Shown here: positions 43,406-43,720 of the stretch, one piece after another
Layout: each line of letters opens with the position of its first letter
Numbering within the stretch: position 1 is the stretch's first letter
Assembly (NCBI GenBank): GCA_964187785.1
Contig: CAXLNC010001113.1
Coordinates: 62,001 to 126,000 of the forward strand
Length of the DNA: 64,000 nt
Direction of reading: 5' to 3'
Origin: Amphiscolops sp. MND2022
Taxonomy: Eukaryota
Program-made: the position numbers and the translations under genes
Notes under the pieces: generated by a model
What the model was told of the DNA's origin: nothing
Seen by the model: only the letters and a program-made list of their open reading frames with translations
Database searches by the model: none

Positions 43406-43417
43406 GGGCTCATAACC
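43406..43417 (-). promoter_or_regulatory. Primer-binding site GGTTATGAGCCC, complementary to the anticodon arm of initiator tRNA-Met (half-tRNA priming)
   Basis: Directly follows the CA end of the 5' LTR. It is the same type as the Ty5/Drosophila copia PBS and contains the in-frame ATG at 43413. Confidence 0.88.
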
Positions 43418-43720
43418 TGTGAAGGGTCATGAATGATGGTGGGGAAGAATTTGCTCTCACGATTGGCGCTGTCTCCATACTCTCACTCAAACCCCTGTCG
43501 CTGGCAGCTCGGTCTCTGACAGAAGGACTCACTTCGAATGACGAACTTCCAACTGCACCACCGACTGGTGTGTAGGGATGTGCTCTCGGAACGCCGCTGG
43601 TGGGGGAACTTGCTGGGATGATCGAACCTTCAGATATGGGTACTTCAGCTGGGTCCCTAATCAGTGTTCGAAGTCGTGGGGGATCAGGAAGTCGCGAACG
43701 CCCTCTCTCTTTCCGTTCTA
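43418..43720 (-). repeat. 5' LTR of copy B (partial, interrupted by a gap)
   Basis: About 98% identical to 23662-23966. Confidence 0.95.

Follow-up and report, generated by a model that had tools for sequence, protein, structure and literature searches.

A copia-type retrotransposon family whose LTR carries a selected reading frame that continues through the PBS into a Gag-like ORF

Classification and annotation both regard LTRs as non-coding, whereas most of the LTR in the elements described here is a conserved protein domain. The closest described layout is that of Ty1, in which the GAG start lies within the 5' LTR and translation passes through the PBS (PMC5454406). From the Ty1 values given in that source (a 5' UTR of 53 nt, a PBS at RNA nt 95 to 104, and an LTR of 334 bp), the coding part of the LTR is calculated to be ~14 codons, in agreement with a preliminary description of the present locus, which had stated that Ty1 gag begins in the LTR over a much shorter stretch. 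Half-tRNA priming, in turn, is a Hemivirus trait (PMC8515867). A narrow full-text phrase search found no literature description of a long coding LTR or of the present family, and the available text of PMC5890265, PMC3942190, PMC4558846, PMC3601003, and PMC11453091 contains nothing on coding LTRs.

The window (the whole stretch of 64,000 nucleotides that was analyzed) contains three related elements, A, B, and C, all on the minus strand (Table 1). Element A is a 3' fragment only, element B extends from 23662 to at least 43720, and element C runs from 46292 past the window edge and spans 22,040 nt, with its 5' LTR at window-equivalent positions 67550 to 68331, beyond the right edge (also L013:3551-4331). 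The LTRs are direct repeats of 757 to 838 nt with TG...CA ends, opening with TGTCAATG and closing with ACA. A polypurine tract, the same in A, B, and C, lies directly before the 3' LTRs, and the PBS adjoins the 5' LTRs. As regards a target-site duplication, the 5' end of B lies under a run of N. The two LTRs of C (46292-47073 and L013:3551-4331) are 91.7% identical, with a dN/dS of 0.046, and their flanks differ and have no common target-site duplication; they therefore appear to derive from different active lineages, which would make C either a recombinant or a chimera of the assembly. Positions 62001 to 182000 of the source contig hold a cluster of at least five related elements, from two families. 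A tandem array of ~23-nt units, with an inverted pair around ~8600, occupies window positions 8243 to 8990.

Table 1. Positions of LTR, PBS, and coding features of elements A, B, and C in the window
Feature	Position	Strand	Remarks
B 5' LTR, visible 3' 303 nt	43418..43720	-	codons ~53-152 of the LTR ORF; 98% identical to 23661-23966
N run hiding or bounding the rest of the B 5' LTR	43721-43920		
PBS, adjoining the LTR	43405..43417	-	13 nt complementary to tRNA-Met(CAT) 27-39; in-frame ATG 43413-43411
ORF1 of B from the PBS Met	41482..43413	-	beta-hairpin and long coiled coil; frameshift near 41480
ORF1 of B, second piece	39142..41229	-	helical region (capsid on positional grounds), CCCH finger, DTGA protease-like motif, 2OG-Fe(II) oxygenase
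C 3' LTR	46292..47073	-	782 nt, TG...CA
LTR ORF in C	46292..46749	-	ATG, 152 codons, and CA; stop-free
Spliced-leader-relic-like motif, C 3' LTR	46926..46946	-	17/21 to leader end plus relic; ATG-free from motif to 46750
Polypurine tract of C	47074..47087	-	
B 3' LTR	23662..24435	-	774 nt; LTR ORF from ATG 24120, 1-nt insertion
Spliced-leader-relic-like motif, B 3' LTR	24284..24304	-	20/21
A 3' LTR	9430..10267	-	838 nt; intact LTR ORF 9887-9430; leader-like motif near 10138-10118
Integrase-RT frame of C, copia order	58724..61888	-	in frame behind ORF1 stop 61951-61949

The source assembly (1.07 Gb) includes chromosomes of >60 Mb, with 38 to 46% GC in their retrieved stretches. The LTR peptide has 27 matches in the assembly, none on the two large chromosomes, and the contigs measured that carry it are 15 to 208 kb long with 49 to 52% GC. 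The only named relatives among the 120 RT matches listed are six Amphidinium carterae proteins, and the exact 18-nt core of the dinoflagellate leader occurs twice in the assembly, both times in stretches of 52% GC on high-numbered contigs. From the contig distribution and GC content, the Amphidinium carterae RT relatives, and the leader cores, we infer that the elements belong to a dinoflagellate symbiont co-assembled with the animal host. The leader cores are on two other contigs, at L075:1501-1518 (+) and in L076 (-), and that in L075 is followed by another partial leader end, resembling a multi-round relic.

The reading frame of the LTR starts, as originally described, at ATGs at 9887 (A), 24120 (B), and 46749 (C), which are 458, 459, and 458 nt from the LTR ends. 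In A and C, it is stop-free for 152 codons and then finishes on CA, whereas each LTR of B has one 1-nt indel (an insertion in the 3' LTR and, relative to that copy, a deletion near 43440 in the 5' LTR). The coding share of ~60% given at the outset also holds (458/782, or 59%, in C and 55% in A). The continuation of this frame through the PBS into gag, which the preliminary description had placed in the window, is present in the 5' LTR of C (L003/L022) and in other copies but is not visible inside the window itself: in the sole 5' LTR there, that of B, the ATG falls within the N run or past it, and the conserved frame is brought to a stop in the PBS by a 1-nt deletion located 22 nt from the LTR end. 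The ATG at 43413 that had been called the gag start is in frame, but it is part of the PBS and complementary to the anticodon of tRNA-Met, so that priming alone would keep it.

The 5' LTRs are mostly in frame with gag, rather than usually out of frame, the outcome that had been named in advance as evidence against a fusion. Six of the nine 5' LTRs with both an ATG and a PBS are open through the PBS (C5, L021, L023, L031, L038, and L039) and three are broken (L029, L043, and L045); the 5' LTR of B, kept separate from this count, is also broken. In seven of the same nine copies, gag is broken within its first ~500 codons, a rate that predicts breaks in 3.6 of nine copies per 150 codons, and the LTR frame is therefore no more damaged than gag. 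The length phase is right in 16 of the 20 LTRs whose ATG and end were located, 15 of which are also stop-free, compared with one third for random phase, the copies being related. ATG-to-end distances are 458 nt in family 1 and 443 nt in family 2. The two families, which have 37 to 38% amino acid identity, have the start Met and the phase in common, and the phase to the PBS is kept across them (458, 443, and 392 nt, all 2 mod 3).

Purifying selection on the LTR ORF, as the preliminary description had expected, is evident from maximum likelihood omega values of 0.114 in family 1 (eight intact copies, 152 codons) and 0.119 in family 2 (six copies, 147 codons), both from gapless alignments. Pooled dN/dS values are 0.131 and 0.114, respectively, and fixing omega at 1 gives 2dL values of 302 and 143 (1 df). 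Third positions are variable in 124 of 152 codons, compared with 30 variable second positions. There are no stops in the LTR frame versus 57 and 94 in other sense frames, and the other sense frames have dN/dS values of 1.7 to 2.8 with 19 to 94 stops. Furthermore, all three thirds of the ORF are constrained up to the ATG (0.18, 0.07, and 0.17; 0.15, 0.04, and 0.20 in the second set). Copies with a frameshift, stop, or deletion (B3, B5, L029, L031, L041, L043, L044, and L045) or with an unplaced ATG or end (L024, L046, L053, and L057) were left out of the dN/dS analysis; omitting broken copies favors openness but not low omega. The LTR frame is real and under strong protein-level selection.

Public relatives have the same junction. 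When 1.84 billion representatives were searched with a profile, 115 matched at an E value of ≤0.001, most of them being short products (150 to 290 amino acids) of 3' or solo LTRs that run into unrelated flanks. The junction is spanned in 26 of 45 public ORF1 relatives, including 11 of ≥1900 amino acids, although such gene calls demonstrate open DNA and not translation. In eight of these 11, which are intact ORF1s of 2018 to 2021 amino acids, the LTR ATG is the start and residue 153 marks the junction; two are called 27 codons upstream (GTG in the matching copy, L029), one is called from an internal Met, and the PBS Met is the start of none of the 11. The collection partly overlaps the source, as two of 160 public proteins are identical to element B; none of the eight full-length ORF1s is identical to the retrieved copies of the source assembly.

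The PBS is a 13-nt perfect complement of positions 27 to 39 (anticodon arm) of tRNA-Met(CAT) and does not match the tRNA-Met 3' end. The tRNA-Met copy used for this comparison is on a large chromosome of the assembly and is probably that of the animal host; a pattern search of the assembly, with 379 matches, those listed all being on the two large chromosomes, did not find the symbiont's own tRNA-Met. As the PBS ATG is fixed by tRNA pairing, it need not be a start, and its conservation is silent on initiation. Several hundred tRNA-Met(CAT) genes form a tandem array with a spacing of ~213 nt at C8:62.05-62.09 Mb, on a large chromosome (L063 to L068).

The LTR peptide is rich in Pro, Ser, Gly, Ala, and Arg, with two aromatic residues, and has a pI of 9.5 to 10.3 overall and 11.3 to 11.5 in residues 1 to 70. 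AlphaFold predicts neither helix nor strand in residues 1 to 155, where pLDDT is mostly <50 (which may also reflect the shallow alignment of 28 rows), followed by a beta-hairpin and a confident coiled coil. The N-terminal extension, originally characterized as basic and disordered, is thus basic in its first 70 residues and predicted to be unstructured. A Pfam search of the peptide found no family. Short motifs are conserved between families: among the aligned stretches of profile search matches that cover the respective sites, RxxPY is present in 75 of 84 and the basic cluster in 58 of 66. The transportin import signal consensus consists of a basic disordered region followed by R-x(2-5)-PY, and dinoflagellates keep their nuclear envelope in mitosis. 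The LTR peptide may be a disordered arm, with its basic patch and RxxPY acting in nuclear import or in RNA binding, which is the least certain element of the present interpretation.

Intact ORF1 (~2020 amino acids) encodes a coiled coil, a helical region, a CCCH (not CCHC) finger, and a DTGA protease-like motif, the latter spotted by eye only. The name Gag is appropriate by position, as ORF1 precedes the protease-like motif, integrase, and RT, but no capsid match was found: Pfam gave no Gag family in 29 ORF1 relatives, a sequence search of PDB gave only coiled-coil matches, and Foldseek found nothing at an E value of ≤0.001 for the AlphaFold model of the presumed capsid-finger-protease stretch, the pLDDT of which is 38.6. 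A 2OG-Fe(II) oxygenase and MazG/PRA-PH-like domains are located within ORF1, between protease and integrase (window 39142-41229, 37629-39127, and 61949-63997 [-]), and this unusual cargo possibly functions in nucleotide or base sanitizing in a host with modified bases. The rve domain (E value, 6.5e-5) lies upstream of RVT_2 (6.9e-7) in one frame, both below Pfam cut-offs; PF07727 is carried by most of the 120 RT relatives listed, and RNase H was not detected by Pfam.

In five copies among the seven stretches scanned, the ORF1 TGA is followed by CAR-NYA and is in frame with integrase-RT (window 61951-61949 [-], L014, L017, L019, and L070, with contexts CAG TTA, CAA TTA, CAG TTA, CAA GTA, and CAA CCA). 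This context resembles the CARYYA readthrough signal and, together with the in-frame integrase-RT, makes it probable that Pol is produced by stop codon readthrough. Downstream of pol is a further large ORF, which codes for a DEAD/DEAH-box helicase (E value, 1.6e-6, above the Pfam cut-off) and long unknown regions and ends ~140 nt before the 3' LTR (window 47213-56970 and 24577-33567 [-]; L014:9220 to L072 [+], a 2090-codon frame). The elements have the TG...CA direct LTRs, tRNA-Met PBS, polypurine tract, and protease-integrase-RT order of Ty1/copia elements and the Ty1-type layout of an ATG in the LTR with a frame open through the PBS into gag. They depart from the non-coding LTR of the ICTV Pseudoviridae profile, a departure compatible with membership, as Ty1 itself departs by ~14 codons.

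A motif resembling a spliced-leader relic, matched against the leader end and 15-nt relic sequence of dinoflagellate retrogenes (PMC12014239), is present at LTR nt ~128 to 150 in all 19 LTRs scored, ~190 nt upstream of the LTR ATG. It scores 20/21 in B3 and 15 to 17/21 in the other 18 LTRs against shuffle maxima of 13 to 16, and is decisive in B3 only; it is kept in eight diverged aligned LTRs. Relics are cut at this AG in trans-splicing (PMC3229502), and a TTTT box has been proposed as a core promoter (PMC12014239); the motif might act as a trans-splice acceptor, as a built-in leader, or as a core promoter. In family 2, similarity to the leader is lost immediately upstream of the AG, which suggests that the leader is not copied in afresh each cycle.

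ATGs are depleted downstream of this motif, with 102 in the 2618 nt upstream of it and two in the 3547 nt from motif to start, where ~57 would be expected (19 LTRs, which are related and not independent; per-copy chance of zero ATG, 0.02 to 0.07). The permutations AGT, TAG, and CAT are common in the depleted stretch. This depletion points to an RNA 5' end upstream of the LTR ATG. In addition, an ORF that is selected up to its ATG and has no stop of its own would be useful only if read from the 5' LTR, which argues for an RNA start upstream of LTR nt ~325. A donor-like CAGG(A/T)GAGG motif is found at LTR nt ~75 to 90 in 16 of 19 LTRs (e.g., window ~47000-46987 [-]), ~55 nt upstream of the leader-like AG, with GT in family 2 and GA in family 1; GA splice donors occur in Symbiodiniaceae.

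Very probably, the last ~450 nt of this copia LTR are a selected coding frame that continues through the PBS into ORF1, and its translation would likely supply the N-terminal ~150 residues of a Gag-like polyprotein of ~2020 residues. The initial reading of the LTR as coding for an N-terminal Gag extension is therefore supported where it could be tested, by omega and by the phase of the 5' LTRs. The RNA would begin at or near the leader-relic-like motif, at LTR nt ~130 to 150, and ribosomes would scan an AUG-free leader of ~185 nt and start at the LTR ATG. U3 would then be only ~135 nt and R plus U5 ~650 nt, and minus strong-stop DNA, primed by half of tRNA-Met, would copy the whole coding stretch into both LTRs, which would explain why 3' LTR ORFs run off into flanking DNA. 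A broader proposal, offered tentatively, is that the LTR was rebuilt around dinoflagellate expression: a built-in spliced-leader relic would set the RNA start at LTR nt ~135, and the ~650-nt R-U5 would be both the strong-stop template and the gene for a 150-residue disordered arm with a PY-type import signal. If so, this arm would give particles or Gag passage through a nuclear envelope that stays intact.

Glyco-Gag of gammaretroviruses is a precedent for an accessory Gag isoform, and the extension could likewise belong to an LTR-started long form produced beside a major Gag that starts at the PBS Met, through leaky scanning or from a second RNA. All copies with a PBS have its ATG in frame, and the retained donor-like motif would permit alternative RNAs, but tRNA pairing accounts for conservation of that ATG, the leader is AUG-free, and the context of the LTR ATG is G at -3, or A at -3 together with G at +4; two products are consequently considered unlikely. 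Accessory genes in U3, such as nef and MMTV sag, suggest instead a gene read from 3' or solo LTRs whose phase with gag is incidental, and the prevalence of 3'/solo-LTR products among the database matches would fit such a gene. Intact copies, however, have no stop of their own inside the LTR, the C termini beyond the LTR end are unlike in every copy, and the phase to the PBS is kept over both families, so that this explanation is largely refuted and has very little probability.

Slightly less probable still is conservation for an RNA or DNA function (structure, packaging, or promoter) or as a recently captured gene that is no longer translated. Synonymous divergence is indeed lowest in the last third of the ORF (pS of 0.34 versus 0.47 to 0.59 and 0.21 versus 0.38 to 0.44), and some nucleotide-level constraint therefore overlaps the LTR end. 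The antisense frame with which the ORF has its third positions in common is also low in dN/dS (0.26 and 0.18, versus 1.5 to 6.8 in the other antisense frames), but it contains 10 and 15 stops. Furthermore, pairwise dS in family 1 reaches ~2 while dN is ~0.23, intact ORFs are gapless whereas the non-coding LTR upstream has 4.6 and 2.7 gap openings per pair, and Rfam gave no match for the C 5' LTR (best E value, 4).

A coding LTR has practical consequences. An annotation that begins at the PBS Met lacks 150 residues, false "novel genes" that extend into flanks arise from 3' and solo LTRs (most of the 115 database matches), and neutral-model dates of insertions or families derived from LTR divergence are biased. 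The leader-like motif and the absence of AUGs from the leader provide a precise, testable prediction of where an LTR element starts its RNA in a trans-splicing host, an open problem in that strand transfer needs a 5' repeat and trans-splicing would remove it.

Like Hemivirus, the elements appear to use an internal tRNA-Met segment as primer, but the Hemivirus profile has non-coding LTRs and genomes of 4 to >9 kb, whereas here the LTR codes and the element is ~22 kb (PMC8515867). SmTCL1 to SmTCL4 of Symbiodinium microadriaticum are likewise dinoflagellate Ty1/copia elements with integrase upstream of RT, a likeness by description; SmTCL3 is ~10 kb compared with ~22 kb here, and the available text makes no mention of LTR coding, primer, or cargo for these elements (PMC5776459). 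The LTR motif resembles the tandem of leader end and relic in DinoRL (20/21 in B3) (PMC12014239, PMC3229502). Unlike in DinoRL, the motif sits inside an LTR, its position is fixed in both families, and an AGCC/GGCT stem is kept around a loop that varies, which suggests selection and not decay. The Ty3/gypsy element Cer1 of Caenorhabditis elegans also faces leader trans-splicing in its host, and its gag-pol RNA skips the SL1 site (PMC3315495), whereas here a leader-like sequence, seen as DNA only, is built into the LTR. A link to dinoflagellate trans-splicing is plausible. Relative to Ty1, the coding stretch is ~10 times longer (147 to 152 codons, 55 to 59% of the LTR), and the half-tRNA primer, leader-relic-like motif, and ~22-kb element with extra domains are further differences. 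LTR coding in these elements is thus a real, strongly selected, and quantitatively extreme variant of the Ty1 layout.
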